NCBI GenBank assembly: GCA_964653455.1
Contig: CAZZFK010000001.1
Coordinates: 158,179-222,178, forward strand
Direction of reading: 5' to 3'
DNA from: an uncultured bacterium
GTDB taxonomy: Bacteria > Margulisbacteria > Termititenacia > CAZZFK01
DNA length: 64,000 bases
Part shown: piece by piece, positions 10,388 to 42,237 of the stretch
How positions within the stretch are numbered: the stretch's first letter is position 1
Layout: each line of letters begins with the position of its first letter
Notes under the pieces: generated by a model
Told to the model about the DNA's origin: nothing
Databases searched by the model: none
What the model saw: only the letters and a program-made list of their open reading frames with translations
Made by a program: the position numbers and the translations under genes

Positions 10388-13246
10388 CTACTTCCCTCGC
10401 CGTACCATTGCATGCAACGATTGATACCAGGCCTTCCCCGTCCGCGTTCTTTTCATCTCAAGGTCTTTCACGACATTTTCCATCCATGGCCCGTACGCGA
10501 ACACGACCCGCTTAAAGATGTTCAGTACCTTATGCGCTTTACGTATCGGCAATTGTTCAGCGATATATTGTTCGTACTTTTCACGCTGATGATACGGTTC
10601 CAGGAAGATATTCAGGTCATGCACACTGTCTTTTGCTCGCTCCAGTATCTTTTTGAGCGCTGTCCTGCTCCGCGGATTTTCCCAGAGAATATCAACGATA
10701 TCGAGCAATCCTGTCATCCTCCTCCGCCCTGTCGCTTCATCATCGCCCTGGAGTTGCGTCTCAGGAACGATCTCTTTGAGCGTCGCATAATTGAGCTCAT
10801 ATTCTTTGCGGGACTTGACCGAACCCTCGATATATCCGCCTACGAGCTCGGACGCGATCTTTCCCATGAGCACCACAGATAGAGCGACCCCTGCCCAACC
10901 AAAAAGATAGGAAAGACCGAACGCGATCGGCCCCGCGATAAAACTTCTCATAAGATTCCGTCGCTTTACGTCCTGTGTGAAACCTCTCAATGAATTATGC
11001 GCATAGATGTACCCCCCATTGAGGGCCGCGAGGGCCACATAGTTCAGGAACCGCTTCGCCATCTCAACAGCAGCATGCTGCTGCGTTCGCAAATGCTCCG
11101 CGATATGTCCATGATACGCGGAGACGTACGCGATCATCTGGTCCATGCTCTGCTCGAGCAGAGCACCGTCAGTCGTGAGCACCATGGACTGAAAATAATG
11201 GTCCGCGATACGGAGCACCGGTATAGAAAGAAAACTGAAGAACATGGAGACCGCGGCATTATGCGGATCAAAATCCTTCATACGCCAATTAACCGGGTTC
11301 CAGCCGTTCTTAGCGACCAGATCCACGACCATATTACGTCCGTACGTGATAAAGAACCAGAACGCATGCACAGCTTCACCGTACGAGAACGCTGCCTTTC
11401 CACAATAGACCGCATATGAGACCGCAGTGCCTAACGTCATCACGATCACGTCTTTGACATGCATATTGAGATCGAACACATAGTCCCGCATCCGGCCGAA
11501 CGGGCCTGTGCGCAGGACATCTGACCGCAGCTGCAATTTCGCCTTCTCGCTCTTGCCCAAAGAGAGCACTACACCATGATCAGAGGACGATCTCACGGAC
11601 ACATGCCCGAGCAGACCGGTCAGTGCATCACGAGGACCCATTCTGAGACCGATCATATCAACGGCGTTCACACGAAGAAGTCGTCTCCAGCGGCGGACCT
11701 TCCTGCGGTCGGTGTACCCCATCCCAGGGACCTTATGGTTATGCCCGTCCGAATTACTGCCGATACGGGCCCGCAAGGGGACCTTCCTGAAATGCTCGGA
11801 GGCTTTCGCCAATTGATAGCGTCGTATATCCAGTTTTTCCCGCTCGACCAACCGCACGGCTTTCGTGACCTGACCCTCGTTCAAACATTCTCTGATCTTG
11901 TTGAGTAAAAGCATCTGTCGTATCAGCTCTGGTCCGGCCACACGATTATTCCATACTTCGATCGATGAGATATGTTCATGATATGTGGTCATATAGTCCA
12001 CTGCCGCTTCCAGACCATGGATAATGGACCTATTGAGAACAACATGTGCCCGGATCTCCTGACCTTCCTGGGAGACCGCATTGATACGTTCAAGAGCAGT
12101 GAAGGCGGTCTCCGGCAACATGAACCGCATGCTGTCCATCATCTTGAAATAGATACCATCAAAATATTTCTTTCTAAGATACACCTTATCCATGCGTTCA
12201 GGGAGCTTTTTACCGTTAATGAGAAAGAGCGCGGTCAAATGAGCGTGCAGATACCGACCGAGATGGACCTGAAACAACGGTTTCCCCTGGGCATAGGTAT
12301 ATAAATCCTCGAGGTCCAAAGACGGTATCGTGATCTGTTCATAGACCAGGTCGCTGTTCAAGACGGGCAGGACCTCCGCATTGAACCGCTCAATGAGACG
12401 AACGAACAACTGATCACGGGTCTTATTGTTCTTGCGAAGCGCCTGAGCGAACTGCTGCCAGGCTTTATCAGCAAAAAGTGCGTCATAATCCCCTATCGTG
12501 CGACAATGCTCGAACACGACGGTCTGATGATAGTATCGCCCGCCATAACTGACGACATATTCCAGGCCGCAATGGACCGTGATATCCAGGATAGCACCGG
12601 CACATACCACTTCATGAATAGCATCCCTATCCTCGAACGCATCAAATACGATCGTGAGCCCGGACAAGCCTTTGATATACGCGTCCAGAACGAGCTGTGC
12701 AGGCCGTTTGCGATCGATAGAGACATGATCGTCCCATGCGATACGTCCGGTCTTTTCCGGTATCTCGGCCATACCCAGGAGGGCGAGCGCACGGCGTACG
12801 GCAGGAGCTTTACCCGAAAGGGCACGCATGTAACAGTCGACCAGCCGGCATTGCCGTAAGATGTTCCCTTTTGCCTTCACACATTCTTTCATAAGGGCCA
12901 TCAGTACCGGAGGCGTGTTCAGCGGCATTTCCTTGCTGTTATAATTGCGACCTTCCTCCATCAGCCTTTTGAGCGCACGCAACCGCAGGTCAGGATCATT
13001 GGAGCGGATAGCGACATAGAGCAGTGCCATATCAAGGGGCTTTTCATAGACCACCTCTTTGAACCCGCGCACATGCCCTTCGAAGAAGAAATGGATATCG
13101 GCGATATCACGATCCAGTAGTTCGTTCAGCGTACGAACGGTCGCATATATCTCCGGGGAGAACGTGGTCGCGCGGCGCACACGGCCGGAAAATGTCATAT
13201 CCCGGACATGCTCAATGACCGCAGCGGCTACTATCTTGGCGAACAT
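10388..13246 (-). CDS. large uncharacterised protein (952 aa) with predicted transmembrane segments
   Basis: Long ORF; hydrophobic stretches (FIAGPIAFGLSYLFGWAGVALSVVLMG, MFFSFLSIPVL) towards the N-terminal third; no family recognised. Confidence 0.6.
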   Translation of the reverse strand: MFAKIVAAAVIEHVRDMTFSGRVRRATTFSPEIYATVRTLNELLDRDIADIHFFFEGHVRGFKEVVYEKPLDMALLYVAIRSNDPDLRLRALKRLMEEGRNYNSKEMPLNTPPVLMALMKECVKAKGNILRQCRLVDCYMRALSGKAPAVRRALALLGMAEIPEKTGRIAWDDHVSIDRKRPAQLVLDAYIKGLSGLTIVFDAFEDRDAIHEVVCAGAILDITVHCGLEYVVSYGGRYYHQTVVFEHCRTIGDYDALFADKAWQQFAQALRKNNKTRDQLFVRLIERFNAEVLPVLNSDLVYEQITIPSLDLEDLYTYAQGKPLFQVHLGRYLHAHLTALFLINGKKLPERMDKVYLRKKYFDGIYFKMMDSMRFMLPETAFTALERINAVSQEGQEIRAHVVLNRSIIHGLEAAVDYMTTYHEHISSIEVWNNRVAGPELIRQMLLLNKIRECLNEGQVTKAVRLVEREKLDIRRYQLAKASEHFRKVPLRARIGSNSDGHNHKVPGMGYTDRRKVRRWRRLLRVNAVDMIGLRMGPRDALTGLLGHVSVRSSSDHGVVLSLGKSEKAKLQLRSDVLRTGPFGRMRDYVFDLNMHVKDVIVMTLGTAVSYAVYCGKAAFSYGEAVHAFWFFITYGRNMVVDLVAKNGWNPVNWRMKDFDPHNAAVSMFFSFLSIPVLRIADHYFQSMVLTTDGALLEQSMDQMIAYVSAYHGHIAEHLRTQQHAAVEMAKRFLNYVALAALNGGYIYAHNSLRGFTQDVKRRNLMRSFIAGPIAFGLSYLFGWAGVALSVVLMGKIASELVGGYIEGSVKSRKEYELNYATLKEIVPETQLQGDDEATGRRRMTGLLDIVDILWENPRSRTALKKILERAKDSVHDLNIFLEPYHQREKYEQYIAEQLPIRKAHKVLNIFKRVVFAYGPWMENVVKDLEMKRTRTGKAWYQSLHAMVRRGK

Positions 13247-13394
13247 CTCTGCTCCCTTATTATGGGCGATACATTACCTTCCGGCACACCTGTGCCGGTA
13301 CTATGTTAATATCGTACAGATATCGTTGGAAATTCAGCGGATCAATCCTATGCCGTGGCCGGACGTACGACCGCGCTTGCGCTACCTCGCCAGC

Positions 13395-15521
13395 TCAATG
13401 TACGGGACTGGGGTCAATAGTGCTGTCGGCAGGGTATGTGTTATGGACCCGATATGACGAATACCCCTTGGTCCCTCTCATTTTATTCGCTCGTCGTTCA
13501 TTTTCCAGGATACGGGTAGCTTCTTGAATATCATGTGCAGCATCCTTGAGTACCATCAAGGAATCCTTTTGTATCTGATAGAGCACGTGCCGGGACCTTT
13601 TAAAAAGGGAGGGATATACATGATGCTCGATCGCCCATCGGTTCAGCTGCCTCAGCCGCGCAAGTTCATACTGCTCCCATCGGGCAGGGAAACGGTCCTG
13701 TTCATCCTTCTCGAGCCGACCGCGGACATATCCATACAATTCTGCCGCAAGACGGTCATGCATGACATGTTCTTCCGTTATACCAAGGAGAGAAAAGAGG
13801 TCGTTACGCGCTATCAGTTCATTGAGATTATCCCACGCAGAAAGCCCTGTTCGGGCGGATAATGACGGATACGTCCGCAATAAGAACTCCAATACCTCCT
13901 TAGCGTCCTGATTGCTGATATCCTCAATCCCGTATTTACCCAGGTCCATATCCCACGTCAGGAAATGCGGCCCGAGCCTAAAGGTCCTTTCTTGTTCCTC
14001 GATCCATTTTTTCTGTAAAGCTTGTACGGCCGCATCGATATCTCCGTTACAGGCATCAAATATCCTGCCGTACGTATCCATCGTATTCCTGTCATCGTCG
14101 ATCGAGGCCAGATACCGCAACGCCTCCGTGCGTTCTTGAACATCATGTTGTGCCCCATCACGACCGTCATGCCGAACGGCGAACTTCTTATCCACCTCAG
14201 CCAGAAGATCATCAAGGCTCGCCAACGGGGCATATGTAGGTTCAGGCTTTTTTTCTGACGGACGGTGAACAGGACCATCTTTCGAACTTCCGTCTTTCCG
14301 GTCACCTGAACCCTCTTCCCGAATGACCGCTGCGACACGCATCTTTTTTTTCTGCTCTTCAAGGAGCCTATCCCCTATCTGTTTATGTCTGTCCGATGTT
14401 CTCTGCATGCCGTCCTTGAGCCACTGCCGCACCTCCGCACTGACCGCATCAAAGATACCGCTCGCGGCCATATCCGCGTCGTTCGGCAAGAGATATATCT
14501 GTGTCCCGTTCTGATACCGCAAGAGCTTCTGACCGTTCTCCTGTAACATATGCCGATAGAACAGGACCGAGCGCTCGGTAGTGCCTATATCTTTCGCGAA
14601 TTGGCGCACACACTGGTACATGGTGCGCACCTGACCGCCCATATAACGGCCGCGCAGATATTTATCGAAATCATCAGGATATAATCTGGAGATACTTTCC
14701 GCCCTCTTCAGGTCCTTCATGATCTGCTGCGATATCTTTGCGGGAGCGGACGCATCGAGGTCCAGGCCTTTTGTCGAGAACACTTCTTTTTCCGTATACC
14801 CGCTCTTGGGGTTCTTTTGCAGCCCGAGCTCCAGAACGGACACTAACTTGACCGCATCGCCCACGGATAACGCGAGAGGATCATCAGCCTCTTCCTGCGG
14901 CCACATTTCTTCCAAGCTCTTGGCCTCTTCGGAACGAACGCCCAGTTTTTTAAGCGCATTGGCCTTGCGCTCGTCCTCACAAAATATCAATCTCACGACA
15001 TTCTGCTCTGCAGGATAACGGCATATATCCGACATATGATGTACGAACAAGAACTCAAAATAATACCTGTAGACCCCTGTTACCCCATGGGACTTAAAGA
15101 ACCGTTCTTTATCGGCCGAGAACACATATTCCTCGAACAGTTCTTTCAGGTCCCAGCGAAAAACATCGTCCAGGCAGACCTTCCGTGTCTTTCCCCCGCG
15201 CACTATCACCACCTCATCAAGAGGTGCGTGAGTATGAAATACCGAAGCGAGCAAATCCTTTTCTTTGATGCCTACGGGATGGGGGGACGTTCTGATGTGT
15301 TTCATCAATTCTTCAAAGATCTGTGTGCGCTCTTTTTCTTCCTGTATCTCTTTGAGGTCCAGTTTCTTGACGCCCGCTTTTGTATCCGTAACAAGCGCTC
15401 CGCCGGAAGCCGACCAGTCCAGCAGTTCTTTGCCTTTATCGTCCGATATCATTTTTTTATGCCACATGGCCATACCCCTTCTTCCTATATAGATATCGTA
15501 TTTTTTGGAAAAAACTCCCAT
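13395..15521 (-). CDS. uncharacterised protein, paralog A (708 aa), UBA-like motif
   Basis: Shares with the next gene the N-terminus MG..(D)(I/T)YI.R...M..WH.K..SD, YRYYFEFLFVHH, a GL..D/E..AP.I helix and a Lys/Arg/Pro-rich linker; YGRIFDACNGDIDAAVQAL resembles the UBA / EF-Ts N-terminal fold. Confidence 0.65.
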   Translation of the reverse strand: MGVFSKKYDIYIGRRGMAMWHKKMISDDKGKELLDWSASGGALVTDTKAGVKKLDLKEIQEEKERTQIFEELMKHIRTSPHPVGIKEKDLLASVFHTHAPLDEVVIVRGGKTRKVCLDDVFRWDLKELFEEYVFSADKERFFKSHGVTGVYRYYFEFLFVHHMSDICRYPAEQNVVRLIFCEDERKANALKKLGVRSEEAKSLEEMWPQEEADDPLALSVGDAVKLVSVLELGLQKNPKSGYTEKEVFSTKGLDLDASAPAKISQQIMKDLKRAESISRLYPDDFDKYLRGRYMGGQVRTMYQCVRQFAKDIGTTERSVLFYRHMLQENGQKLLRYQNGTQIYLLPNDADMAASGIFDAVSAEVRQWLKDGMQRTSDRHKQIGDRLLEEQKKKMRVAAVIREEGSGDRKDGSSKDGPVHRPSEKKPEPTYAPLASLDDLLAEVDKKFAVRHDGRDGAQHDVQERTEALRYLASIDDDRNTMDTYGRIFDACNGDIDAAVQALQKKWIEEQERTFRLGPHFLTWDMDLGKYGIEDISNQDAKEVLEFLLRTYPSLSARTGLSAWDNLNELIARNDLFSLLGITEEHVMHDRLAAELYGYVRGRLEKDEQDRFPARWEQYELARLRQLNRWAIEHHVYPSLFKRSRHVLYQIQKDSLMVLKDAAHDIQEATRILENERRANKMRGTKGYSSYRVHNTYPADSTIDPSPVH

Positions 15522-15582
15522 TTTGAGGGGCTCTGGAGGGTGGTGCCCGGTGTGAAAAATACCGAATAATGCCGGACCTTCG

Positions 15583-17424
15583 TCAGCCGAACATATCCTT
15601 CAGTTCCTGGGCATGTTTCTCATTGATCTCAGCGGCTTTACGTAATAATTCTTTCTTGGCGACCTCGAAGTTGCCTCCGTTCTCTTCCAGGACACTTTTA
15701 CATTGGTCCTTGTCAAAACCGGCCATCATCACTTCACGCAACAGGGTCAACTCGCGAACTTCCTTTGAATAGGATCGGAGCAGCTCGGAACGCCAGAGGA
15801 TATCTTCCTCTTTTTCGTTCAACGGGCGGCCAAGCAACAATATCTTTCTCGCTCGGCCGATACTATTGCCTGAACGTTCATACGCAGAGGAGCACTCATC
15901 CCAGGTCTTTTTCGTTTCATAACAAAGGCTGAAGATATCGTCCTTTATTTGCTGCTCAGCAGTGATCGCCGCACGTTTCAGCGCATCGTGCTTCCTATCC
16001 ACCTCTTCACAGATCTGTTCAAAACTCTTCCGGGGAGGGAATTCCACCGGCACATACTGTTTCCTTTGAGGGACTTCCGCTTTAGGCGACGAGACCTTTT
16101 TTGGCGGGATCACAGGGACAGGCCGTGTCTCAGATTCTCGCTTTCCCCGCATTTCCGTCTCGCGTTGTTTTTGCTTTGCTTCTTCAAGAGCGGCCATTTT
16201 ACGCCCCGCCGCCAATATCTCCTCATGTTCTTCATCGTTCTTCAGCTTCAACCAATCGATGACATCCATGATGCGCCGTTGGTTCACATCGTTCTTGTCT
16301 TTCCGCTGACGATGGAGCTCATCTTTCAGCCCGGACAACGCAGTGGGATTGTTCAGGACGATGTACATTTCGCCCCTGTCCTCATATATGAAGAATTTTA
16401 CGCCGTTATTCAAAAGGAGATACTTGACCGCCTCAATGGCTTTGACCGTGCATCCGAGCTCTTTGGCCAACCTCGATTCTTCTCCGCCATAGTCCTGGTC
16501 CAAAAGTTTTTTAAGGTCCTCAAAACGCTGATATTCATACTTGATCTTTTTGCGCTCATGAATGAGTTTACGTATCTGCGGTGCCGTCTCCCTGTTCAAC
16601 CCAAGAGCATTGAGGAGCGTACGCTCCGTATACCCTAACGGGTCCCTTCTGTTGCCTTTGTTCAATAACCCCAGAAGTTCTTCTTCTTTCTCATGAAATA
16701 TCTGGATCGTATCGATATTCTCGTATTCGAACGTATCATAACCGACCCACAGGGATTCCAGTTGCTGTGCGGCAATGGAATTCTTGCCCAATTTTGCTAC
16801 GGCAGCCTCTACCCTGTCCTGCAGGGAAGGAAGAATGAAGATCTCCCCGTTATGAGCATATCTGATGATCTTGAGCGGATGATTGGCGAACAGATAACTG
16901 AAGTAGTACTTATACTGCTCTTTGATGTTCGAATCGGAAAGGAATCGTCCGATATTGTTCACATATCTGCGGGAAAGCTGGACCATATCTTCGACCGAGA
17001 TATCCATTAAGGGTTTTACCTTGAAATCATTTGGCCCTGCGATCACATTATAGGGGACCTGCGGCACCTTGATAGTGAACGCTGCCGGATATCCGAGGAC
17101 CTCCAGCAAGCGTTTTTCCCGCACACCGAACACGTCCTTTTCCGTGCTTAATTCATGTACGATCTTCTTTCTCAGGTCCTCGAGGGCCCTCTCATCTTTC
17201 AATTCAGCGGGCGTTTTTTTAACTTCCTGTTTAACGTCAAAAGTATCATCCGCAGCGAACAACTGCAGGTCCATACGCAGCTCAATACGCTCGCCATTCT
17301 CTCCGACCGCATATACGGGCGTTCTCAGCCACGCAAGACAATCGGATAATAATTTATTATGCCACACGGACATACCTGTGCACCTCTGTATATAGGTATC
17401 GGAACCTCCTGAAGGTCGTCCCAT
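15583..17424 (-). CDS. uncharacterised protein, paralog B (613 aa), C-terminal UBA-like domain
   Basis: Paralogous to 13395..15521 (YKYYFSYLFANHP, LGCTVKAIEAVKYLLLNNG); C-terminal VMMAGFDKDQCKSVLEENGGNFEVAKKELL fits the UBA consensus (MGF ... NG.(V/F)E.A...LL). Confidence 0.65.
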   Translation of the reverse strand: MGRPSGGSDTYIQRCTGMSVWHNKLLSDCLAWLRTPVYAVGENGERIELRMDLQLFAADDTFDVKQEVKKTPAELKDERALEDLRKKIVHELSTEKDVFGVREKRLLEVLGYPAAFTIKVPQVPYNVIAGPNDFKVKPLMDISVEDMVQLSRRYVNNIGRFLSDSNIKEQYKYYFSYLFANHPLKIIRYAHNGEIFILPSLQDRVEAAVAKLGKNSIAAQQLESLWVGYDTFEYENIDTIQIFHEKEEELLGLLNKGNRRDPLGYTERTLLNALGLNRETAPQIRKLIHERKKIKYEYQRFEDLKKLLDQDYGGEESRLAKELGCTVKAIEAVKYLLLNNGVKFFIYEDRGEMYIVLNNPTALSGLKDELHRQRKDKNDVNQRRIMDVIDWLKLKNDEEHEEILAAGRKMAALEEAKQKQRETEMRGKRESETRPVPVIPPKKVSSPKAEVPQRKQYVPVEFPPRKSFEQICEEVDRKHDALKRAAITAEQQIKDDIFSLCYETKKTWDECSSAYERSGNSIGRARKILLLGRPLNEKEEDILWRSELLRSYSKEVRELTLLREVMMAGFDKDQCKSVLEENGGNFEVAKKELLRKAAEINEKHAQELKDMFG

Positions 17425-17461
17425 TTATTTGAGCTTTTTTAATATGCGGAAAAATGAAAAG

Positions 17462-17498
17462 AATAAAACCCCGGCGATACCTGTATCACTACAGGTAT
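17462..17498 (-). terminator. intrinsic terminator downstream of the PGK-family gene
   Basis: 9-bp perfect stem ATACCTGTA / TACAGGTAT with 4-nt loop; on the minus-strand transcript it is followed by a U-rich tract (plus-strand AATAAAA). Confidence 0.5.
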
Positions 17499-17524
17499 GC
17501 CAGGGCCTATCTTAGCAGTAGCAG

Positions 17525-19126
17525 TTATTGCTTTTTTGGCTGCGTAACATCATATCCAAAATTATACATTTCTGACATCGTATACTGCAGGACCTTGATC
17601 GACGGTAACGCCAACCCGTCAATAACATAGGCCATCGCCGCACCACCGCCGGTGAGCAATATACTGTACTCTGTACTATGATCCAGCAATCTTGATTTCT
17701 TTATCGCCGAATCCGTATCACCGCCGCCTAAGATACCATACCCATGGGTGACCTCGGCAAAAGCTTTGATGATGGCATCGGTACCATGTGCGAACTGAGG
17801 ATTTTCGAACACACCCATAGGACCGTTAAAGAACCTGTACTCGGCAGCTTTGATCCTCTCCGCATATAATTCCTCGGACTCACGACCAATATCAAGATAG
17901 ATCTGGTCATCCGCGATCTCTTTGACATTATGAACATCTTTAATATGCTTCCCGCCGCCGAACACGTTCGGAAGCTCTGTCCAACTGACCGTGCGAAAAT
18001 CCTTGGGGATAATGATGTTCACGCCGTTCTGTTCCGCGGTCTCAAGGAGCTCTATTGCCGCACGGATGCCTGCCGGATCGAGCTTCTGCTTATCCCAGAC
18101 CGCCTGGGGGATACCTTGTGCAAGAGCCTCTTCAAGAGTAAGCCCTGGCACACCCACCTTCATGCCGCGTGCTTTCATGAAATATAACGCCATTTTTCCG
18201 CCGACACAGATATCCTTGATACCTTTATCGACAAAACTGCGCAAAATATCGATCTTTCCCATTTCTGCTCCGCCCGGATCACCCATGATCTTGGTCCCGC
18301 CTGAGACCACGACCGACCTTTCCGGATATTTCAGGAACGCATCATGGAGTACATGCAGTTTCGCACTGCTGTTCACAAAAGAATCCGAGGCCATGACCGG
18401 TTTGTGAAGCTTTTTCATGGCTGACACCAGAAAGTTATTCGACCATTGAACGCGATGGATGAAATCGAACCCGGCGTTCATATATACGTCCAGATAATCC
18501 AGCATCTTCGGGAAAAGGTTCTGGTTCTTTTTTTCCATCATCCGTTCTTTTTCATTGATGCGTATGTTCTGGAGCAGCAGTATTCTGATCTTCCCTTGCT
18601 TCACTTTCCTTAGCTTCCAGAGCGCTTCTATACCGGCAAATTTTTTGGATTTTACCCTGTCTATCTTGATAACACCTTTGCCGAATTCACGCTCCACTCT
18701 GTGCTTCATTTTCTCAAAGATCATTTTATTATCTTTGAAAGTAACACCCATGATATTGTTCTTGTCTTCAACGTGATAGATAAGCACTACGTTCATACCG
18801 GCCTCAACAGCCGTTCTGACATCAGTCCATGAAATATCCATGCGCTTTTCGCTATCCACTTCATAACCTTTTGCAAAGAATCTGAGGGATTGCTTCGCAA
18901 GCTTGAAAGTAAGGTTCCAGTCGACCCTGATGCCGATCGTTTTACCCTTCACCCATTCTCTGTTCATCAGAATAAAGTTCTTAAAGGTTCGGATACCGTT
19001 CTTGTTCAAATGATTCGGCTTGAGCCGGTCTACGCTCCTCATTAAGTTATGCGTTGTATAAATATTTGGCCTTTGCGGTACAACTAATTCCTGGACGAAT
19101 TCTATTACTTTCTTTGAATGATACAT
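17525..19126 (-). CDS. pgk: phosphoglycerate kinase-family protein with N-terminal extension
   Basis: C-terminal RFFNGPMGVFENPQFAHGT, ILGGGDT and LTGGGAAMAYVIDG are diagnostic PGK motifs; N-domain aligns (IRILLLQNIRINEKE, IHRVQWS) but SHLGRP is replaced by YHVEDK; AAAGGAG precedes the ATG at 19126. Confidence 0.7.
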   Translation of the reverse strand: MYHSKKVIEFVQELVVPQRPNIYTTHNLMRSVDRLKPNHLNKNGIRTFKNFILMNREWVKGKTIGIRVDWNLTFKLAKQSLRFFAKGYEVDSEKRMDISWTDVRTAVEAGMNVVLIYHVEDKNNIMGVTFKDNKMIFEKMKHRVEREFGKGVIKIDRVKSKKFAGIEALWKLRKVKQGKIRILLLQNIRINEKERMMEKKNQNLFPKMLDYLDVYMNAGFDFIHRVQWSNNFLVSAMKKLHKPVMASDSFVNSSAKLHVLHDAFLKYPERSVVVSGGTKIMGDPGGAEMGKIDILRSFVDKGIKDICVGGKMALYFMKARGMKVGVPGLTLEEALAQGIPQAVWDKQKLDPAGIRAAIELLETAEQNGVNIIIPKDFRTVSWTELPNVFGGGKHIKDVHNVKEIADDQIYLDIGRESEELYAERIKAAEYRFFNGPMGVFENPQFAHGTDAIIKAFAEVTHGYGILGGGDTDSAIKKSRLLDHSTEYSILLTGGGAAMAYVIDGLALPSIKVLQYTMSEMYNFGYDVTQPKKQ

Positions 19127-20244: not shown

Positions 20245-23200
20245 ATGTACAGACCTGCGAACCATAAGATCATAGCGGCGATCGAAGAGCCTGTCGTACG
20301 AGCTGGACGGCAAAGGACCGTCCTTGTCATAGATGATGAACCCGACATGTGCTCATTTTTAAGTAACGCGCTCATGGAATTCGGCTTTGCGGTCTTGACC
20401 GCACAAGACAGCGGACACGGACTTGAACTGTTCAAACAACACCGCCCGGACCTGATACTGCTCGACCTGAACTTCCCTCAGTATATGCCCTGCGGGGAGA
20501 ACATACTTAAGGAGGTCGTTTCTTTTGATCCCATCACTCCCGTTCTGATATTCACAGGAGCCCCGGTGACGCCGGAAATGGCCTCCGAGCTGACACTGAC
20601 CGGGGCCAAGGGATTCCTGACCAAACCGTTCAAGGACCTCAATGGACTGAGAATGATCATCAATGAACGCATCAAGGAAGCGGACAATATCCGGTTCATC
20701 AAACATACCGAAACAGTCGGATATCAGCGGATCTACCATGAACTGGTACGGAGCCAAAAAGAGTTCGAAGCGCTCGTCATGAACACCTCGACCTCCATAT
20801 TCGAATATGCGAACGGACATTTTGTTTTTTTAAATCCTTCGTTCGAAAAAGAGATCGGCTACCCTCTGAAGGACCTGCAAGAGCTGGACCTGCATACCTT
20901 CGTCCACCCCGACTCACACGCGGCCATTGATGAACATGTGAAGCATTGTTTTGACCATCCGTACCAGGAACATCGTACAGAGCTGAAGCTGATGACCAGC
21001 AGCGGCACCATCCGCTGGGTCAAAGTGGTCTCGATCGTGGTCGACCTGGACGATACGCCGACGCTCATCGGTTCTGCGAGCGATATCACTGTACGAAAAG
21101 AGGAGCTTCGCCGCATATCGATACTCGAATCGCTCTTTCGGGAGCATTTGAGGTCCATCCCGGTCGCAGAGATGCCTGAACTGATCGCCCGCACGCTCCT
21201 GGAGCTTTCATCTGCCTCCACGGTGGCCGTGAACATATTCGACCCGGACACCAAAGAGATGACAATTGCCAATATTTCCGGTAATGAGGACCTGCTCGAA
21301 CAGGTCTGGCAGGAATACCAGGTCCCGTTCGTGAAACGCGGACATCAATTCAAGATAGATGATCTCTCGATACAGGCTTTGCGCTCTGATACCCTGATCA
21401 CTATACCACAGGGGCTCTATACACTCTGGGGGAAGGCCGAACCAAAAACAACCTGCCTTGAAGTAGAAGAACGCTGCGGCATCAGGTCCGTCCTCACACA
21501 AGGACTGGTCAATGAAGGTAGGCTCATCGGCAATATCGTTATCATGGCCAGACAGGACCGGGATAACCCTCCGATGAACAAACCTCAGATCAGCATCATG
21601 ATCAGGCTTTTCGCGCTCATGTGGCAGGAACGGATAAAAACAGAACAGCTTTCGCTGAACGAACAGCGCTATCACGCGTTCTTTGATAATATCAGTGATG
21701 CAGCATTGACCCTTAACGCTGCCGGCAAGATAACAGATTGCAACGCTCAGACCGAGACACTGTTCAAATATCCCGCAGAGATGATCCTAAAGGACAGGCG
21801 TACATTATTGAACATCGCCGTACCAGTCACCCCTTCGGACCGGCAAGCGCTCAAGGATATGCGCAAGACCGCACACATGCGCGGTTCGGCGAACGGAGAA
21901 ATAAGGTACAAGAACGGTGACGGGGACATCATCGATACGTTCATCAAGATAAAGACCGACAGCCTCGGGAACCAGTACGTCCTGATCACGGACATCACCG
22001 AACAGAAACGCGCGGAATATCTCCGCGGACATGACGAAGCCACCGGACTCCCGAACTCTCAGAGCTTCCTGAAGGAGCTCGAACGCGCCTATCATGACCA
22101 TACCGTCTCCGGCAAGAACTTCGCGGTCCTGTCCCTGGTCGCCGACTGGGGGGAAATGGATGCGCTCAAATTACGGTATCAGGGACAGAACATCTCAGAG
22201 AAAACGCTCCTTCATCTTTCTCAGGAATTGACCAGGGTCCTCCCCAGCAACACTGTCCTTGCTCGTGGAAAAAAAGAGAACGAGTTCCTGTGCCTCTACC
22301 ATGGCCTACAGGACCCGAAGAACGACAAGCGATTCGAAGAGATATTGAACAAGCTTTCAATACCGATCACGCTCTATCGTTTGCCCCGGACCGAACACAT
22401 CACGTTCAGTATCGGCATCACGACATCGTTCGATCCCGTGCATGATCGTCCCGAGAACATACTCACCAACATGGATACGGCGCGGAAAAAACTGAAAGAT
22501 ATCAAGATCCCGGGCGAAACACATATCTCCTGGTATGACCCAACGCTCGACGAGCAGAACCGCTCTATCCAGGAAATACGCACGTACACCAAAGAGATCG
22601 CACAGAACGGGTTCAAGGATTGTTACCTTAAATACCAGCCTATCTGGGACCACCGGACAAAGACCATTCATGCTGTCGAAGTGCTCTTCCGCTGTGACGA
22701 TCCCAAGTTCAGCAAGAATATCGAGCTCCTGATAAAAATAGCAGAGGAGAACAAGGAGCGCATAACAGCTCTTGATGCCTGGGTCCTCGAACGGGCATGT
22801 ACCGAGGCGCGGGACTGGGGGAACACCAAGATATGTGTCAATGTATCACCTCTCGAACTTGATGAATATTTCCTTGACCGGGTCATCGCTATCACGGACC
22901 GTTGCCGATTCCCCAGACAACGGCTCATTTTTGAGGTCACAGAACGCAGCTTCGTTAATGCTCAAAGCATTGATATCCTTCGCGCACTGGTACGGAACGG
23001 TATCGAGCTATCCGTCGATGATTTCCTTTCAGGTAATGCCACGTTCCACAACGTGAGCTTGTATTCGGACTGTATCCATTACGTGAAACTCGATAAAGGG
23101 GTCGTGAACGACCTTGAGAATGCACATACATTGCCTGACCGGGGCAAAAGCATGCTCGGCATAACCGAAGGTATGATAGAAACGTTCCATACAAAAGTTG

Positions 23201-23361
23201 GACGGCTCATCAGGGTCATAGGGGAAGGGATCGATTCGGCGAACATCGTACAACTCCTGAAGAACATCGATGTGGACCTTATGCAGGGGTACTTTCTTGG
23301 CCGTCCGGAAAATGCTAAGACCTTCGCCAAACGTTTCAACAGGAAAAAACATGCGAAATAA
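20245..23361 (+). CDS. response-regulator receiver / PAS / degenerate GGDEF / EAL protein (probable c-di-GMP phosphodiesterase)
   Basis: N-terminal REC domain (VLVIDDEPDM ... PDLILLDLNFP); EAL motifs EVLFR, DDFLSGNATF, VKLDKG, GEGID...QGYFLGRPE; the GGDEF position reads KKENEF (degenerate). Confidence 0.8.
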   Translation: MYRPANHKIIAAIEEPVVRAGRQRTVLVIDDEPDMCSFLSNALMEFGFAVLTAQDSGHGLELFKQHRPDLILLDLNFPQYMPCGENILKEVVSFDPITPVLIFTGAPVTPEMASELTLTGAKGFLTKPFKDLNGLRMIINERIKEADNIRFIKHTETVGYQRIYHELVRSQKEFEALVMNTSTSIFEYANGHFVFLNPSFEKEIGYPLKDLQELDLHTFVHPDSHAAIDEHVKHCFDHPYQEHRTELKLMTSSGTIRWVKVVSIVVDLDDTPTLIGSASDITVRKEELRRISILESLFREHLRSIPVAEMPELIARTLLELSSASTVAVNIFDPDTKEMTIANISGNEDLLEQVWQEYQVPFVKRGHQFKIDDLSIQALRSDTLITIPQGLYTLWGKAEPKTTCLEVEERCGIRSVLTQGLVNEGRLIGNIVIMARQDRDNPPMNKPQISIMIRLFALMWQERIKTEQLSLNEQRYHAFFDNISDAALTLNAAGKITDCNAQTETLFKYPAEMILKDRRTLLNIAVPVTPSDRQALKDMRKTAHMRGSANGEIRYKNGDGDIIDTFIKIKTDSLGNQYVLITDITEQKRAEYLRGHDEATGLPNSQSFLKELERAYHDHTVSGKNFAVLSLVADWGEMDALKLRYQGQNISEKTLLHLSQELTRVLPSNTVLARGKKENEFLCLYHGLQDPKNDKRFEEILNKLSIPITLYRLPRTEHITFSIGITTSFDPVHDRPENILTNMDTARKKLKDIKIPGETHISWYDPTLDEQNRSIQEIRTYTKEIAQNGFKDCYLKYQPIWDHRTKTIHAVEVLFRCDDPKFSKNIELLIKIAEENKERITALDAWVLERACTEARDWGNTKICVNVSPLELDEYFLDRVIAITDRCRFPRQRLIFEVTERSFVNAQSIDILRALVRNGIELSVDDFLSGNATFHNVSLYSDCIHYVKLDKGVVNDLENAHTLPDRGKSMLGITEGMIETFHTKVGRLIRVIGEGIDSANIVQLLKNIDVDLMQGYFLGRPENAKTFAKRFNRKKHAK

Positions 23362-26300
23362 CAGGAACAGGCTCTTTCATTCCAAGATCATCGCAGATAT
23401 ACATCGCGAACTCTTTATGACCAAAGGGAAGTTGAACCTTTTGCGCCATCAGAACGAACGGCAGCGGAAGATCATCTCTGGCCACCAGATCTCGGAACAA
23501 AAGCTCAAAGAACAGGTGGTATCCCTGCGAGCACAGATCGAAACCCTGAGAACAGAGAATATTGTGCTTTCCAAGACCCATACAGAGCTCAAAGAATGCC
23601 AGCTGACCATGCACGAAATGACCCAGAACCTGCGGGACATGATCACGTTCACCGACCTCACGGGCCGTATCACGTACAATTCTCCGGTCATTCGCGAGTT
23701 CCTCGGGTACGATCCGGAATATCTCAACGGCCTTTCGATTTTCGACCTCATACACCCTGACGATCGCCAGCACTCGCTCCGGGAGTTCAATGAAGCGATC
23801 GCACAACGTCAACCCCGGACGGCCATCATACGTTTCAGACACAAGGACGGACACTACCTGTGGCTTGAATCGAGCGGCAATTATATCCCTGACGACGCCG
23901 GCGGTATCAGCAAGCTCATCTTCTCGAGCCGGGACATCAGTGAAAGGCTCTCGCTTTATGAAATGATCGGCAAACAACAGCAGCTCCTTCAGATGATCAC
24001 GGAGAACATGCGGGACATGCTCTCCGTTGTCACCCCGGACCTTCGGTTCACCTATGTGAGCGCCTCGAATTTCAAGGTGCTCGGCTATGCTCCGAAGGAC
24101 CTGACCGGGATCTCACTGCTCTCTATCCTTCACCCCGACGACGCGCATAACGTGGCACAGCTCTTCTCCCTGCTCCGCCAGACCGGCATGGAAGAGACCG
24201 CCACAGAGGTCCGTTGCAGAAGATCGGACGGCAGTTATCTCTGGGTGGAGACCGTGATCAACGTGGTATTCAGCACACCGGGGACCATAGAACATATCAT
24301 CCTCTCGAGCAGAGAATGTACAGAACGTAAACGGATCGAGGCCGAACTTGAACTGGAACGCTACTACAGCCGTGAGATCATAGATAAGAACATCATCCCG
24401 TTCTTCGAGATCGACCTGGACGGCTATATGCACGATGCCAATCAGGCAATGGCGGACATGCTGGGTCGTCCGCTGCATGAGCTCAAACCGCGCCCGATCC
24501 CACTTGAGGCCATACAAAAGGCCATCGGACGTTCCGGTATCCGCTGGGAGGACCTTGTCTCCATGGACAAGAACAATACGTTCATTTTCAAGAAGAACAG
24601 CCTCTCCTCGATCTGCAACACTGCCCCTGATTCAGCTGAACGAAAAGCATTGCTCTCTCTCATCAGATCTTCTTTTGGACCGAAATATTCCGATCTTGTC
24701 GGACCAAAACATGCACGAACATCCTGGAACGCGTTCAAAGAGGTCTTTGAAACCAAACGGTCCCGTTCGACATATGACCTGCCCATTACCGGCAAAGATG
24801 AACGGATCGGGGAGACCTCTATAAATCTTCGCTATGAGAACGAGCGGATCATCGGCTACTTCGGCTTCATCCGGGACGTCACCGAGATACGTAAGACCGA
24901 GCAGGAAAAACAGATGGTGGCACATATCATCTCCAATACCGTGGACAGGACGGATACGATCGTATACCAGCTCGACAGAGACGGATATATGACATACACG
25001 AACAACGCCATCCATAAAAGAAGAGCGAAAGAGCTCGAAATGCTCAAGACCGATCACAAACGACTGCATTATCTGGAGTTCGTTGTCCCTGAATACCGTG
25101 CGTTCGTCAGGGACCATTATGAAAAACTACTGGCCGAGCACGCTCTCCTGCTAAAAAACAACCCGCACGTTCGGGCCGCCGACATCCCCCCTCTGTCGCC
25201 GTTCCTGGAGTTCCCTGTCCAGATCGGAGAGAGCACCCTCTGGATCTCACAAGCTATCACTGTCGAGCTCGATGAAACCACACGGGAGATCACGCGCGTG
25301 AACGCAATAGCACATAATATCACTGACCGAAAACTCGCGGAGCTCGAAAGAGAAAAAGCAGACAAACAAAAAGAACGGGCGGAACAAGAGCTCCGCAACA
25401 GCCATGAACAGATGAAAAAAGTGCTTGATCAGCTCCATGAAGCAGCGATCATTCAGGGAAGCGACGGGATCACGCTCATCAACGAAGCGTTCGCGAACAT
25501 GGTCGGACTGACAAAAAAAGATATTCTCGGCTCCCATCCTGTCGAATACGTACCAGAAGATTTCATTCCGGCCTTTTTGGACCAATACATACCCGGCACG
25601 TCCCCGATCCCTGAAGAAATGACACTGCTCAGTACCACTAAAGGCACCATCCCGGTCAAGCCCAGCCACTCACTGCTGACCGAAGGCCAACAGACCGATG
25701 AACCATTACATCTATGGACGTTCCTTGATCTGACCGAACGTAAAGAAAGGATCAACAGTGCTCTCCGTGATGAACTGACCGGTCTTCCGCAAAGAGGATT
25801 GTTCAAGGAATATTTCATGAACGCCGTCGCAGAAGCAAAACGGGCCAAGAACGCAGGGCTCCCGTATTTCATTTCCATGTTCTTCATCGACATCAATAAG
25901 TTCAAAGAATATAACGATAAGCTCGGATACTATGAAGGCGGAGATCCGGCCATTAAGACCGCCGGAAGGATAGCCAGCCAGTGCATGCGGGAGACCGACC
26001 ACTTCGCACGCTGGGGTGGGGATGAGTTCATCGGACTGCTGGAGAATATCGACGGAGGAACGGAGAACGTGCTTCAAAAGATCATGGCCAGTGCGCTCGT
26101 GAAGGACCTCCGGTTCAGCATCGGAGTGTATCATGATGACCTGACCGCTCTTGACCTTTCAGACCAGAACAAGCTTTTTGATGAATGTATCAGAAAGATA
26201 ACCATAGCGGAAGAAAAAGCAAAACAACTGAGCGCCCTTCACCCTGTCTCCGTGACGATCAACGACAAGACCCTGAATCTGACAGATAATTATTGTTATT

Positions 26301-26422
26301 ATTACGGGAGCGACACCGAGGGCAAGCCGCCGCTGCATAAACGGCCGTTCCTCAAGTTCAGACAGATGTCCGTTCTGAACAAACAATACCTCAAAGCTGT
26401 CTGGAAGATCCTGCGCGGCTGA
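23351..26422 (+). CDS. multi-PAS sensor diguanylate cyclase (GGDEF)
   Basis: C-terminal RDELTGLPQRGLF ... RWGGDEFIGLL is an intact GGDEF domain; several PAS-like repeats and a coiled-coil N-terminus; start placed at ATG 23351 (AGGAAAA upstream), overlapping the previous stop by 11 nt. Confidence 0.8.
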   Translation: MRNNRNRLFHSKIIADIHRELFMTKGKLNLLRHQNERQRKIISGHQISEQKLKEQVVSLRAQIETLRTENIVLSKTHTELKECQLTMHEMTQNLRDMITFTDLTGRITYNSPVIREFLGYDPEYLNGLSIFDLIHPDDRQHSLREFNEAIAQRQPRTAIIRFRHKDGHYLWLESSGNYIPDDAGGISKLIFSSRDISERLSLYEMIGKQQQLLQMITENMRDMLSVVTPDLRFTYVSASNFKVLGYAPKDLTGISLLSILHPDDAHNVAQLFSLLRQTGMEETATEVRCRRSDGSYLWVETVINVVFSTPGTIEHIILSSRECTERKRIEAELELERYYSREIIDKNIIPFFEIDLDGYMHDANQAMADMLGRPLHELKPRPIPLEAIQKAIGRSGIRWEDLVSMDKNNTFIFKKNSLSSICNTAPDSAERKALLSLIRSSFGPKYSDLVGPKHARTSWNAFKEVFETKRSRSTYDLPITGKDERIGETSINLRYENERIIGYFGFIRDVTEIRKTEQEKQMVAHIISNTVDRTDTIVYQLDRDGYMTYTNNAIHKRRAKELEMLKTDHKRLHYLEFVVPEYRAFVRDHYEKLLAEHALLLKNNPHVRAADIPPLSPFLEFPVQIGESTLWISQAITVELDETTREITRVNAIAHNITDRKLAELEREKADKQKERAEQELRNSHEQMKKVLDQLHEAAIIQGSDGITLINEAFANMVGLTKKDILGSHPVEYVPEDFIPAFLDQYIPGTSPIPEEMTLLSTTKGTIPVKPSHSLLTEGQQTDEPLHLWTFLDLTERKERINSALRDELTGLPQRGLFKEYFMNAVAEAKRAKNAGLPYFISMFFIDINKFKEYNDKLGYYEGGDPAIKTAGRIASQCMRETDHFARWGGDEFIGLLENIDGGTENVLQKIMASALVKDLRFSIGVYHDDLTALDLSDQNKLFDECIRKITIAEEKAKQLSALHPVSVTINDKTLNLTDNYCYYYGSDTEGKPPLHKRPFLKFRQMSVLNKQYLKAVWKILRG

Positions 26423-39011: not shown

Positions 39012-40766
39012 TCATTCAGTTTCTACTTGTGAATTAAAATTCTTTAGCATATTCTGAACCTGTTCCCAATTACTTTCCGACGCGGTATACCTTTTGTCAT
39101 GAACAATCAGTTCTTCACCATATAATTTCTCAAGTATATACGCAACAGACTTAGTAATAGACCAAGCCAAGACCTCATCAGGCTTTTCTCCCAAACAATA
39201 CTTTTTGACATCCTCTTTTGAAACATTAATTAATATTTTCCCGGTGTAGCTAAGATAGCGGTATTTTTCTTTATCCATTATACAACCCGGAAAATTCGCA
39301 TGCTTCAATGTATTATGAATTTTCCGAACATCGTGCGCATTAGCAAATACCTTTTCGTCCATTCCACTCCACAAGCAACTCTTTTTAAGGCTGTTCAACA
39401 ATAGAAAATATTCACACTCATCCATACTCTCCGTTTTCTTCTCTACCTCTATCTTATCCTTATCCACTATCATAAAACTGTCCTTACCGGAGCTAACCAA
39501 AAGCGATCGATATTTTTTGCGAACAGCCTGCTCGGCCAAGGAACACCCCAGGCTACAAGCAGACTCATATTTCCCAATAAAATAACAAAAATACATTTCA
39601 TCTAACAATTTCCCCAGACGGGGATCTCCAATACTATTATCCGAATCGTCCTTTAATTCATACCTATTCCCATACTTTTCTAATCTCAGAAGACATTCTT
39701 GCTGCTTCTGCTCAGTAAAGAAATGCTGAGATAATTCAGATTCAACTTTGCTCTTTTGATCAAATTGAAGTTCTCTAATTTTTCTAGTATCAGCCAAAGC
39801 TTTTTCTATCTCGCCTCTTTCCCGATACAACTCAGCTCTAGCTTCTATAGCTGCTATAAAATTACCGTTAATCGCTATTGCTTTATTAAAGGCATCAAGC
39901 GCATCCTCAATATTACCAAAACTCTGGTCCTCTAGCCCGATGAAATAATAAGCATATTCATTATCTGGATTGAGCTCCAGAGCTTTCTCATAAGATGGAA
40001 ATCCATGACATTGGCTAGTATCGGAGCAGAAGAATACTATCGCATTCGACAATTCATTCTTATATTCAGGGCAGAGATCAGCCAAATTGTCTATCTGCAG
40101 CTCAAACTCCTCAAATAAAGCACTTATATCGACTGCAAGGTCTATCCAATCAAAAGCATCCATCATCGGAGTTTTAAGCACCTCAATATAATCATCAAGA
40201 GCTTCTTTATGCTTAGCTTGCTTCATCCTTGCATGGCCACGAAAGAAACATATATGACACCTAGGCGATGAATAACCAACCACTTTTAACTCTGAACGCT
40301 CTCTTTTATCCATATAGACAGAACAAGCTTTCTCCAATGCCGGATAGTCTTCCAATGCGAAATTAATCTGACACACGCGCCAATATACTTTCTCATCGAT
40401 ATCATTGCGACCACTCTCAAGAACCTTTTTATAGTCTTTAAGTGCATTTTCATAATCGGCGTTGTTAAAATACAAATCACCTCTATCATTATGAATAATA
40501 TCCTCATAACATCGCTTCAACCCATTTACCTCTGCAGGAAAGCGCTCAACAATATCCAATGCTTTTTTATAATCCTCAAACATTTGCTGAACTGCATCAG
40601 GATGATTTAACTTCTCTGTCGCCCATGCTCGCCACATATACGCTTGCGGAAGATAGATAGAGGTATCATTATTAGCAGTTTTTATTATTTCACTTAATAA
40701 ATCAAAGGCTTCTTGATATTTACCCTTATCATATAATTCAATACCAGCATTAATTTTTTCTTTCAT
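39012..40766 (-). CDS. TPR-repeat protein with uncharacterised C-terminal domain
   Basis: Repeated 34-residue units with the W/LG/Y/A/F/AP TPR pattern (KGKYQEAFDLL, YENALKDYKKVLE, ALDAFNKAIAINGNF); last ~230 aa have no recognised motif; AT-rich gene. Confidence 0.7.
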   Translation of the reverse strand: MKEKINAGIELYDKGKYQEAFDLLSEIIKTANNDTSIYLPQAYMWRAWATEKLNHPDAVQQMFEDYKKALDIVERFPAEVNGLKRCYEDIIHNDRGDLYFNNADYENALKDYKKVLESGRNDIDEKVYWRVCQINFALEDYPALEKACSVYMDKRERSELKVVGYSSPRCHICFFRGHARMKQAKHKEALDDYIEVLKTPMMDAFDWIDLAVDISALFEEFELQIDNLADLCPEYKNELSNAIVFFCSDTSQCHGFPSYEKALELNPDNEYAYYFIGLEDQSFGNIEDALDAFNKAIAINGNFIAAIEARAELYRERGEIEKALADTRKIRELQFDQKSKVESELSQHFFTEQKQQECLLRLEKYGNRYELKDDSDNSIGDPRLGKLLDEMYFCYFIGKYESACSLGCSLAEQAVRKKYRSLLVSSGKDSFMIVDKDKIEVEKKTESMDECEYFLLLNSLKKSCLWSGMDEKVFANAHDVRKIHNTLKHANFPGCIMDKEKYRYLSYTGKILINVSKEDVKKYCLGEKPDEVLAWSITKSVAYILEKLYGEELIVHDKRYTASESNWEQVQNMLKNFNSQVETE

Positions 40767-40809
40767 TATAGAAACCCCTTTTACCTTGTACCTTTCTTAA
40801 AATAACACA

Positions 40810-42237
40810 TCAAGAATTATCTTCATCCTGCCCTTTCTCGCCATATGCATCATAAAAATACCTGAACGCCACCTTCGCATTTGTAGTATCTTTATGATAT
40901 CTATTTGCCATTCTTTGCTTTAATACCTGCAGAATCGTACCGCAGCCCGGCTGATACTTCGACTTGCCGGAAAGCAACTTAATGACCTCTTCCGCGAGAG
41001 CGCTCCTGAGCTCCGTATTCATTTCTTTGCCAGCCCTATTCCCCTCCATCTGCTCTATCACATGATTGATCGTTTTCTCGGGATCCTTTTCATACTCATA
41101 AAAATACTTTTCCGCCTCAACTTCATTACTCCTGATGCTTGTCAGCTGTGCTTCATAATTATCTTTCATCTTGCTCACAACACTAAAGATCCGCTCCGTA
41201 AGCTCCCGGGGAGCATAGGCCGTTACATCCCCGCCCCAACCCAATATCCATTTTTCTAATGCATATTTATCCGCCAAAGTATCCCATTCAAAATCATTAA
41301 AAAAGAACTTTGCTTTTATATTGGAAGGGAGCATCGCAGCTTCTTGTATGACATTCCTGAAAAGTTCTTTTTTCCATATCCCTTTCGAATAAATGGCACT
41401 ATTGGCAAAGGTCTTCATTTCATACAGGTAGGGGGCGATCTTCGGGGATATCCGCACCTCCACAGATCTGCTGCTTTTCCTTTTTTGGGCATTTAAAAAC
41501 CTCTTTAATTCCTTACTCCTTGGTTTAAATTTCTTGTGCAGCTGCCGCATGCTCTTTATTCTGGCCAAAGCTAAAAGAACAAAGCCAGTCCGTGTTTTAT
41601 CCAGGCAATACGCCAATACATACCAGCGATAGTTGTTATACACAAAAACGTATGGCTCGATGACTTTTTCTTCCGCAACGAACTTATTATCCTGGAGTTT
41701 CGTGTACGTATAATATTCAATTTTCAGTGAAGTCTTCGCTTCGATCGCCGCATCAATACGTTCAAATACGTCCGAAAATGCAAAATCACAATAAGGAATA
41801 TGCCCGATAAAATATCTGGCCATAGTCTTCTTTGTATCGAGCTTGTGCTGCCCCATATTCGCCTTAATGATCTTTGCGACGGCAGACTTAAAATGGGTCT
41901 TGAGAGGCGTGCCTTCAAAAGAAGGCAGGAATCTTTCTGCTACAAGTAAAGCTTCTGCTTCCTTAGGAGATAGCGAAAAAGCACCCTTTGCTAAACGAAC
42001 AGGGTTAGTGAAGTAATACGTAGATTTCCCTTCTTTTTCAACCCTGACCATATCTTCTTCCATGAGCTTTTTCAGATTACGGTCTAATGTTCGTTGGGGA
42101 ATATGAAGATTATTCAGCAAATATTGTCGTGATAGTTTGTTCTTGATCAAAAGATCTTTATCTTTATCTAAATACTCTCGCGTTGTCAGCTCAATATAAT
42201 CTGTAAGGTATTTAATAGCTTTCACTTGCTTGCGCAT
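40810..42237 (-). CDS. WYL-domain transcriptional regulator with N-terminal HTH
   Basis: N-terminal winged-helix segment and a central WYL domain (EPYVFVYNNYRWYVLAYCLDKTRTGFVLLALARIKSM); about 230-aa C-terminal extension; AT-rich gene. Confidence 0.7.
   Translation of the reverse strand: MRKQVKAIKYLTDYIELTTREYLDKDKDLLIKNKLSRQYLLNNLHIPQRTLDRNLKKLMEEDMVRVEKEGKSTYYFTNPVRLAKGAFSLSPKEAEALLVAERFLPSFEGTPLKTHFKSAVAKIIKANMGQHKLDTKKTMARYFIGHIPYCDFAFSDVFERIDAAIEAKTSLKIEYYTYTKLQDNKFVAEEKVIEPYVFVYNNYRWYVLAYCLDKTRTGFVLLALARIKSMRQLHKKFKPRSKELKRFLNAQKRKSSRSVEVRISPKIAPYLYEMKTFANSAIYSKGIWKKELFRNVIQEAAMLPSNIKAKFFFNDFEWDTLADKYALEKWILGWGGDVTAYAPRELTERIFSVVSKMKDNYEAQLTSIRSNEVEAEKYFYEYEKDPEKTINHVIEQMEGNRAGKEMNTELRSALAEEVIKLLSGKSKYQPGCGTILQVLKQRMANRYHKDTTNAKVAFRYFYDAYGEKGQDEDNS

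Follow-up and report, generated by a model that had tools for sequence, protein, structure and literature searches.

Orphan genes are common in under-sampled lineages. ORFan families of tandem paralogs are among the closest described counterparts of two genes, here called A and B, that are encoded on contig CAZZFK010000001.1 of an uncultured bacterium of the Margulisbacteria (assembly GCA_964653455.1) and that were analysed within a stretch of 64,000 nt, referred to below as the window. A and B are like such families in their one-organism distribution, the adjacent same-strand copies, a conserved core, and variable termini. They differ from ORFans generally in that the proteins are unusually large (600-700 aa), clearly structured, and contain an internal repeat; furthermore, their identity of 26% implies an old family, yet no relative was found among about 15 billion proteins. 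Another group of comparable proteins are those with tandem winged helix-turn-helix (wHTH) modules, e.g. ScpB and the Rep_3/RepA-type initiators, which, like A and B, have two modules in tandem. In contrast to the minimal wHTH domain of ~70 aa, the A/B modules are longer (~110 aa), and the model of their structure is of low confidence.

The two genes have the following positions, taken from the list of open reading frames (ORFs):

13395..15521, minus strand: gene A, with 708 codons if counted from the first ATG, and a protein of probably 690-692 aa
15583..17424, minus strand: gene B, with 613 codons if counted from the first ATG, and a protein of probably 596 aa

Both architectures consist of a short conserved N-terminus (GM..WH.K..SD), two modules R1 and R2, a charged helix followed by a linker, and a helical tail that is specific for each paralog. 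The reading that we favour, and regard as rather probable, is that A and B are a lineage-restricted pair of tandem paralogs that encode soluble, probably cytoplasmic, modular proteins and that have the stepwise history discussed below.

Homology between the two genes and an internal duplication

The original prediction had described both ORFs, with lengths of 708 and 613 aa counted from the first ATG, as the products of a tandem duplication followed by diversification. The coordinates and lengths are correct, and a pairwise alignment bears out the paralogy: BLASTP with composition-adjusted statistics aligned about 500 residues at 26% identity (E=3e-24), and the mean nucleotide identity of the pair is 45%. 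Smith-Waterman comparisons with shuffled sequences were used to localize the similarity. Residues 1-360, upstream of the charged helix and linker, gave z=43.7, and the sub-segments 60-220 and 220-360 gave values of 22.7 and 17.4, respectively. A Lys/Arg/Pro-rich linker had also been predicted, and K/R/E/P-rich linkers are indeed present in both proteins (about residues 385-435 in A and 405-465 in B), but the linker alone is not significantly similar between A and B, i.e. the resemblance does not exceed that expected from composition (z=1.6). Because the non-linker region reaches 43.7 and the linker only this value, the similarity cannot be attributed to low-complexity segments. For the C-terminal parts (A 433-708 versus B 466-613) no similarity was found (z=-0.2), in agreement with the predicted divergence of the C-terminal halves. 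Thus, the significant homology spans the N-terminal ~445-480 residues, beyond which none is detectable.

The two genes are adjacent on the same strand, with a spacing of 61 nt, and they share significant homology outside of low-complexity sequence, as is characteristic of tandem paralogs. The simplest reading is a tandem duplication after which the C-terminal parts diverged or were replaced, and it is supported by the adjacency, the common strand, the N-terminal homology, and the unlike tails. As judged from 26% amino acid and 45% nucleotide identity, together with the native codon usage of both copies, the gene duplication is old.

We also considered that the pair might be an artefact, i.e. 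that the similarity is due to chance or low complexity or that the ORFs are spurious. The charge-rich composition (~32-34% charged residues in A and B, which are rich in K, R, E, and D), the low-complexity linker, and the lack of homologues that would confirm coding are compatible with this explanation. However, the BLASTP and shuffle results given above refute it, and chance does not yield open frames of 613 and 708 codons in DNA with 50% GC. In addition, the same codon is used at only 47 of the 104 identical aligned residues, and therefore conservation acts at the protein level. Gene A was also called by gene callers in two independent assemblies. The probability of an artefact is thus practically nil.

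Comparison of the proteins with themselves, using two-sequence profiles and hhalign, revealed reciprocal off-diagonal matches (residues 75-183 of A matched 231-350, and residues 307-346 of A matched 140-179). They delimit two modules in each protein:

14961..15299, minus strand: A module R1, residues 75-187 (hidden Markov model (HMM) E=6e-49, self-trained)
14463..14831, minus strand: A module R2, residues 231-353
16804..17154, minus strand: B module R1, residues 91-207, including YKYYFSYLFANHP
16345..16677, minus strand: B module R2, residues 250-360, including GLNRETAPQI and LAKELGCTVKAIEAVKYLLLNNGVKFFIYEDRGEMYIVL

A module-1 profile was built from A 75-187 and B 91-207, and a module-2 profile from A 231-353 and B 250-360. 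The alignment of the two profiles comprises 105 columns, with a probability of 79% and P=1.6e-5, and as two-sequence profiles can inflate such statistics, the score was calibrated with 100 column shuffles of module 2. The observed score was 34.9, compared with 11.0 +/- 1.9 for the shuffled profiles (maximum 17.6), which corresponds to z=12.4; a reversed control scored 12.4. With an HMM made from all four module sequences, exactly two copies were found in each protein; neither the first 80 residues nor the linker nor the two C-terminal parts contained a copy. A third, degenerate copy in the C-terminal extension of A ('LLGITEEHVM', 'IEHHVY') was considered and rejected (P=0.2-0.3).

The modules start with G-x-x-E-K/R-x-L-L and end with a pattern of three helices and a beta-hairpin. 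R1 of A holds G-IKEK-DLL and the aromatic helix, followed by the beta-hairpin-like CRY..VVRLI, whereas R2 of A holds G-YTEK-EVF, GLDLDASAPAKI, and a helix-turn-helix plus hairpin (FAKDIGTTERSVLFYRHMLQENGQKLLRYQNGTQIYLL). Two of the motifs that had been predicted to be common to both proteins can be placed in this framework. The aromatic motif is present in both (YRYYFEFLFVHH at A 151-162 versus YKYYFSYLFANHP at B 171-183) and lies in module 1; in module 2 it corresponds to the helix ERSVLFYRHMLQEN (A) or VKAIEAVKYLLLNN (B). The GL..D/E..AP.I helix likewise occurs in both (GLDLDASAPAKI in A and GLNRETAPQI in B) and falls in a variable insert of module 2.

The internal repeat is new here and had been overlooked in the first reading of the sequence. 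Because both modules occur in both paralogs, the ~110-residue module appears to have been doubled before the gene duplication. The order of events would thus have been an internal module duplication, a tandem duplication of the whole gene, and divergence or replacement of the tails. If the proteins are real and functional, they represent a clean small example of such a three-step evolution by module duplication, gene duplication, and tail replacement.

Translation starts and 5′ extensions

The original prediction included a conserved N-terminal peptide, MG..D.YI.R..GM..WH.K..SD. The letters are present in both ORFs, but the first 16-17 residues are probably not translated. The deposited protein of gene A (P0001) has 690 aa and starts at M19 (ATG 15465..15467), and a Logan variant of it (P0003), which is 100% identical to the window copy, has 692 aa and starts at M17 (ATG 15471..15473). 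The deposited protein of gene B (P0002) has 596 aa and starts at M18 (ATG 17371..17373).

To rank the candidate starts, duplex energies with the anti-Shine-Dalgarno (anti-SD) sequence were compared. Of 27 genes tested, 17 had a duplex of -5 kcal/mol or stronger, and we conclude from this fraction that the organism uses SD sequences. For gene A, the values (dG) are -2.1 at M1, -6.6 at M17, and -9.0 at M19, and for gene B they are -0.7 at M1 and -9.4 at M18. The elements of the 5′ extensions are:

15474..15485, minus strand: SD-like purine tract GGAAGAAGGGGT upstream of M17/M19 of A, from the duplex energies
17381..17387, minus strand: SD-like AGAGGTG, 7 nt upstream of M18 of B, from the duplex energy
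15486..15497, minus strand: 12-mer GATATCTATATA in the 5′ extension of A, matching the B copy at 11/12 positions
17389..17400, minus strand: 12-mer GATACCTATATA, the corresponding element of the B extension

As strong SD sites precede the internal Met codons, and not the first ATGs, the first 16-17 residues are likely to be a leader. The codons of the "conserved Arg" are in fact the purine tracts of the SD sites (AGA-AGG-GGT in A and CAG-AGG-TGC in B). Nucleotide conservation within the pair is highest, with 71-77% identity versus the mean of 45%, in the aligned codons 7-31, a stretch that straddles the internal starts. Translation therefore most likely starts at an internal Met (M17 or M19 of A and M18 of B), and the upstream "residues" are probably a conserved region for translation initiation rather than a peptide. 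More generally, what looks like a "conserved N-terminal peptide" in raw ORFs can in reality be a ribosome-binding region that is conserved.

The 12-mer, GATAyCTATATA, precedes the aligned internal Met (A M17 and B M18) by 9 nt in A and by 16 nt in B, and the A copy adjoins the most nucleotide-conserved stretch. Together with an in-frame ATG-GGA, it may serve both genes as a regulatory or leader element, or it may belong to a translated N-terminal extension, in which it would encode D-I-Y-I in A. A shared RNA structure between the two 5′ leaders was not predicted.

Fold, C-terminal parts, and possible functions

The secondary structure of R2 of A, taken from a low-confidence AlphaFold2 model, consists of three helices (282-293, 297-312, and 316-329) and two strands (333-338 and 341-346), and R1 has helices in the same model that are equivalent to those of A 297-346. 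On this basis, the ends of the modules may have a winged-helix-like topology, and the sequence pattern "LAKELGCTVKAIEAVKYLLLNNG-VKFFIYEDRGEMYIVL" is of a kind typical for wHTH proteins.

The regions downstream of the modules are:

14217..14438, minus strand: charged helix and K/R/E/P-rich flexible linker of A, residues 362-435
16030..16302, minus strand: charged helix and K/R/E/P-rich linker of B, residues 375-465
13398..14216, minus strand: A-specific helical C-terminal part, residues 436-708 (273 residues)
15586..16029, minus strand: B-specific helical C-terminal part, residues 466-613 (148 residues)

For A, the low-confidence model shows a long helix (362-403) followed by coil. Only the first ~11 residues of the A tail (SLDDLLAEVDKK) can still be aligned with B, and the C-terminal part of A has no Pfam match. 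The C-terminal part of B (466-613), folded alone from the single sequence, gave an AlphaFold2 model with a mean predicted local distance difference test (pLDDT) value of 76.4 and a predicted template modelling (pTM) score of 0.53, in which two three-helix units are formed.

Residues ~552-592 of B (15649..15771, minus strand) have UBA-like matches that remain below the Pfam gathering thresholds. They concentrate on residues 566-589 (MAGFDKDQCKSVLEENGGNFEVAKKELL), where the bit scores, compared with the respective cut-offs, are 18.8/22.4 for UBA, 17.2/26 for UBA_8, 16.5/21.1 for CUE, and 16.4/21.8 for UBA_4, with E=0.0014-0.008; in A, UBA_4 scores 12.1 bits. Residues 566-589 resemble the helix 1-loop-helix 2-helix 3 consensus of UBA/CUE/TS-N domains (PF00627, PF02845, PF14555, PF22566), and a three-helix unit is located there in the AlphaFold2 model. 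The TDRD3 UBA domain (1wji) matches with E=0.3, and the best Foldseek match of the model is the UBAP1 SOUBA domain with E=1.1, whereby the fold searches are unspecific. The UBA-likeness of the B tail is no more than a hint. A second similarity to a eukaryotic domain involves the aromatic motif: a local alignment of ~40 residues with the SURP domain of SF3A1 (2dt7_B) has E=0.45-0.82 among 177,635 sequences and covers the pattern D-x-V-x-L-x-x-x-[FY]-V...G-R-x-F-L...K-E-Q-x-x-Y-x-F-x-[FY]-L-x-x-x-H. The SURP similarity was rejected as chance: Pfam Surp (PF01805) has no match at E<=10, and unrelated chains, e.g. poxvirus A6, score better.

If both similarities were taken at face value, A and B could be eukaryote-like interaction proteins or effectors, with a UBA-type domain in the B tail and a SURP-like helix pair, that act on the machinery of a host or partner eukaryote. 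The agreement of four Pfam models on one segment of B, the TDRD3 and UBAP1 matches, and the SF3A1 alignment favour this explanation; with sub-threshold scores, unspecific fold searches, and the SURP similarity rejected, we regard it as highly improbable.

Neither A nor B contains a signal peptide or a membrane segment, and hydrophobic segments with a KD19 value of 1.6 or more are absent from both. N-myristoylation at an MG motif was also considered, but neither N-terminus fits (by inspection, with a PROSITE-style rule). The favoured reading as soluble modular proteins allows a tentative proposal for their mode of action. The doubled module would serve both paralogs as a platform that binds nucleic acid or a common protein partner. 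Alternative C-terminal interaction heads would be attached to it through the flexible linker, allowing A and B to couple one input to two different partners. That A and B are cytoplasmic adaptors or nucleic-acid-binding proteins with a common core ligand and different tail partners is a possibility in which we have low confidence, and it is on balance doubtful. A more specific version is unlikely: the pair would constitute a new tandem winged-helix-like family of a deep, barely sampled spirochaete lineage, in which the module binds nucleic acid or a common partner and interchangeable heads, one of them UBA-like, recruit different effectors, possibly with the protein encoded by the next gene:

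10388..13246, minus strand: gene for a 952-aa protein, downstream of A, with one membrane-like segment (residues ~774-799)

This 952-aa protein has no Pfam or NCBIfam match. It has 13 homologues with 24-36% identity, at least two of which are encoded on spirochaete contigs, one labelled Rectinemataceae (Treponematales, Spirochaetota); one contig with a homologue also carries TatT and DUF5312 genes. The family is thus conserved, although uncharacterised. Going by these homologues, the bacterium that encodes A and B is likely to be a spirochaete.

Several observations weigh against the favoured reading or against parts of it. The AlphaFold2 model of full-length A, calculated with the two-sequence alignment, has a mean pLDDT of 36 and is unusable. 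No Pfam model of an HTH or winged-helix domain matched at E<=10, neither with the full proteins nor with the isolated module-2 segments, and no winged-helix protein was found among the PDB sequences with the four-sequence module profile; other A/B profiles did not retrieve wHTH chains from the PDB either. The only piece that was modelled with any degree of confidence, the C-terminal part of B, matches generic helical hairpins only. With regard to the N-termini, the in-frame ATG-GGA is kept in both 5′ extensions, 48 or 51 nt upstream of the internal Met, and the 11/12-identical 12-mer leaves room for translation from the first ATG. Lastly, five (spirochaete) contigs with a homologue of the 952-aa protein lack an adjacent A/B-like gene, and thus a functional link of A and B to the 952-aa gene is unsupported by conservation. 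None of the findings links the pair to any one process.

Distribution, origin, and genomic context

A search for further family members in the genome and in metagenomes had been proposed as a check, and none were found in the databases and loci covered here. In a word-indexed search of 5.8 billion clusters, A and B each matched only themselves, and when 1.84 billion proteins, which represent ~15 billion, were searched exhaustively with an HMMER profile, only P0001 and P0002 were retrieved. Pattern scans of GTDB-representative genomes, JGI metagenome contigs, and IMG/VR did not reveal a relative, nor did tblastn searches of plasmid and phage records or six-frame HMM searches of the 64-kb window and of ~1 Mb of fetched loci. 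There was also no significant match for A or B in Pfam, NCBIfam, PHROGs, PADLOC, and the PDB; the best PHROG match, to an entry of unknown function, had E=0.012, and the number of PADLOC matches was 0.

The organism itself is poorly represented. For its RF3, PGK-like, and 952-aa proteins, a relative at 90% identity is lacking, and these proteins occurred only in a single NCBI contig of 525,596 bp and two SRA runs. The most similar RF3 of the metagenome collection shares 65-69% identity. No synteny was detected at RF3-anchored loci, including that of the closest relative (L012, 67% RF3 identity). Judged by the sequence searches, A and B are a genuinely new sequence family, probably one that is restricted to its lineage. 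If real and functional, they would extend the "dark matter" of the bacterial proteome by a large, structured family with an internal repeat. The practical value is limited until relatives or experiments become available, and orphans are to be expected where the closest RF3 is this distant.

The patchy distribution of a family without relatives would also be accounted for if A and B had been left behind by a mobile element, a prophage, a plasmid function, or a defence system, e.g. as an initiator of replication or a partition protein that carries winged helices in tandem. Plasmid Rep proteins typically have such an arrangement, and the flanking genes are not syntenic in the nearest sampled relatives; both points favour this explanation. 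However, the PHROG, PADLOC, plasmid, phage, and IMG/VR results listed above speak against it, and no integrase or transposase gene, tRNA gene, or repeat boundary is found nearby. Codon usage is a further argument: the distances to the pool of the window are 0.086 (A) and 0.074 (B), compared with 0.05-0.116 for core genes, and A and B are in this respect unlike the low-GC foreign genes elsewhere in the window. We consider a mobile-element remnant very unlikely. More generally, because codon usage is native and mobility genes, tRNAs, and repeats are absent from the vicinity, a recent foreign origin of A and B is unlikely.

The low-GC genes are located at 39012..42237 and 52103..53977 (minus strand). 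They encode a TPR protein (37% GC), a WYL/WCX-domain protein (41%), and a family-2 glycosyltransferase (40.5%), have codon-usage distances of 0.155-0.214, and are probably horizontally acquired islands. The whole window contains neither a tRNA gene nor an Rfam family at the gathering threshold.

Upstream of gene B, two features are relevant to its transcription:

17456..17507, minus strand: strong intrinsic-terminator-like hairpin and T-run (GGCCCTGGCATACCTGT...ACAGGTATCGCCGGGG), 3′ of the PGK-like gene
17525..19126, minus strand: PGK-like gene, 533 aa

The hairpin was missed by a simple terminator scan and is present in the minimum-free-energy fold of the leader. Its position implies that B, and probably also A, has its own promoter. 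On the minus strand, the simple scan did not detect a terminator-like site in the spacer that separates B from A or in that between A and the 952-aa gene. Therefore, B and A may be co-transcribed, possibly together with the 952-aa gene, from a promoter downstream of the terminator behind the PGK-like gene.

The 148-nt spacer between A and the 952-aa gene contains a perfect palindrome, CCGGCAC-AGGT-GTGCCGG (13281..13298, minus strand). It is not followed by a T-run and could be a protein-binding site or an RNA hairpin.

The PGK-like protein is strongly divergent: it matches Pfam PGK with only 189 bits, and the score with the NCBIfam PGK/TIM model is 154 bits versus a cut-off of 883. A PGK-anchored scan of the GTDB-representative genomes yielded only one relative, with 23% identity. 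The 533-aa protein may be a PGK-like paralog and not the housekeeping enzyme.

Two large tandem genes for c-di-GMP signalling proteins are present on the plus strand, at 20245..23361 (REC-PAS-GGDEF-EAL) and 23270..26422 (PAS-PAS-GGDEF). Counted from its first ATG, the second gene shares 92 nt with the end of the first one, so that its true start is probably located further downstream.

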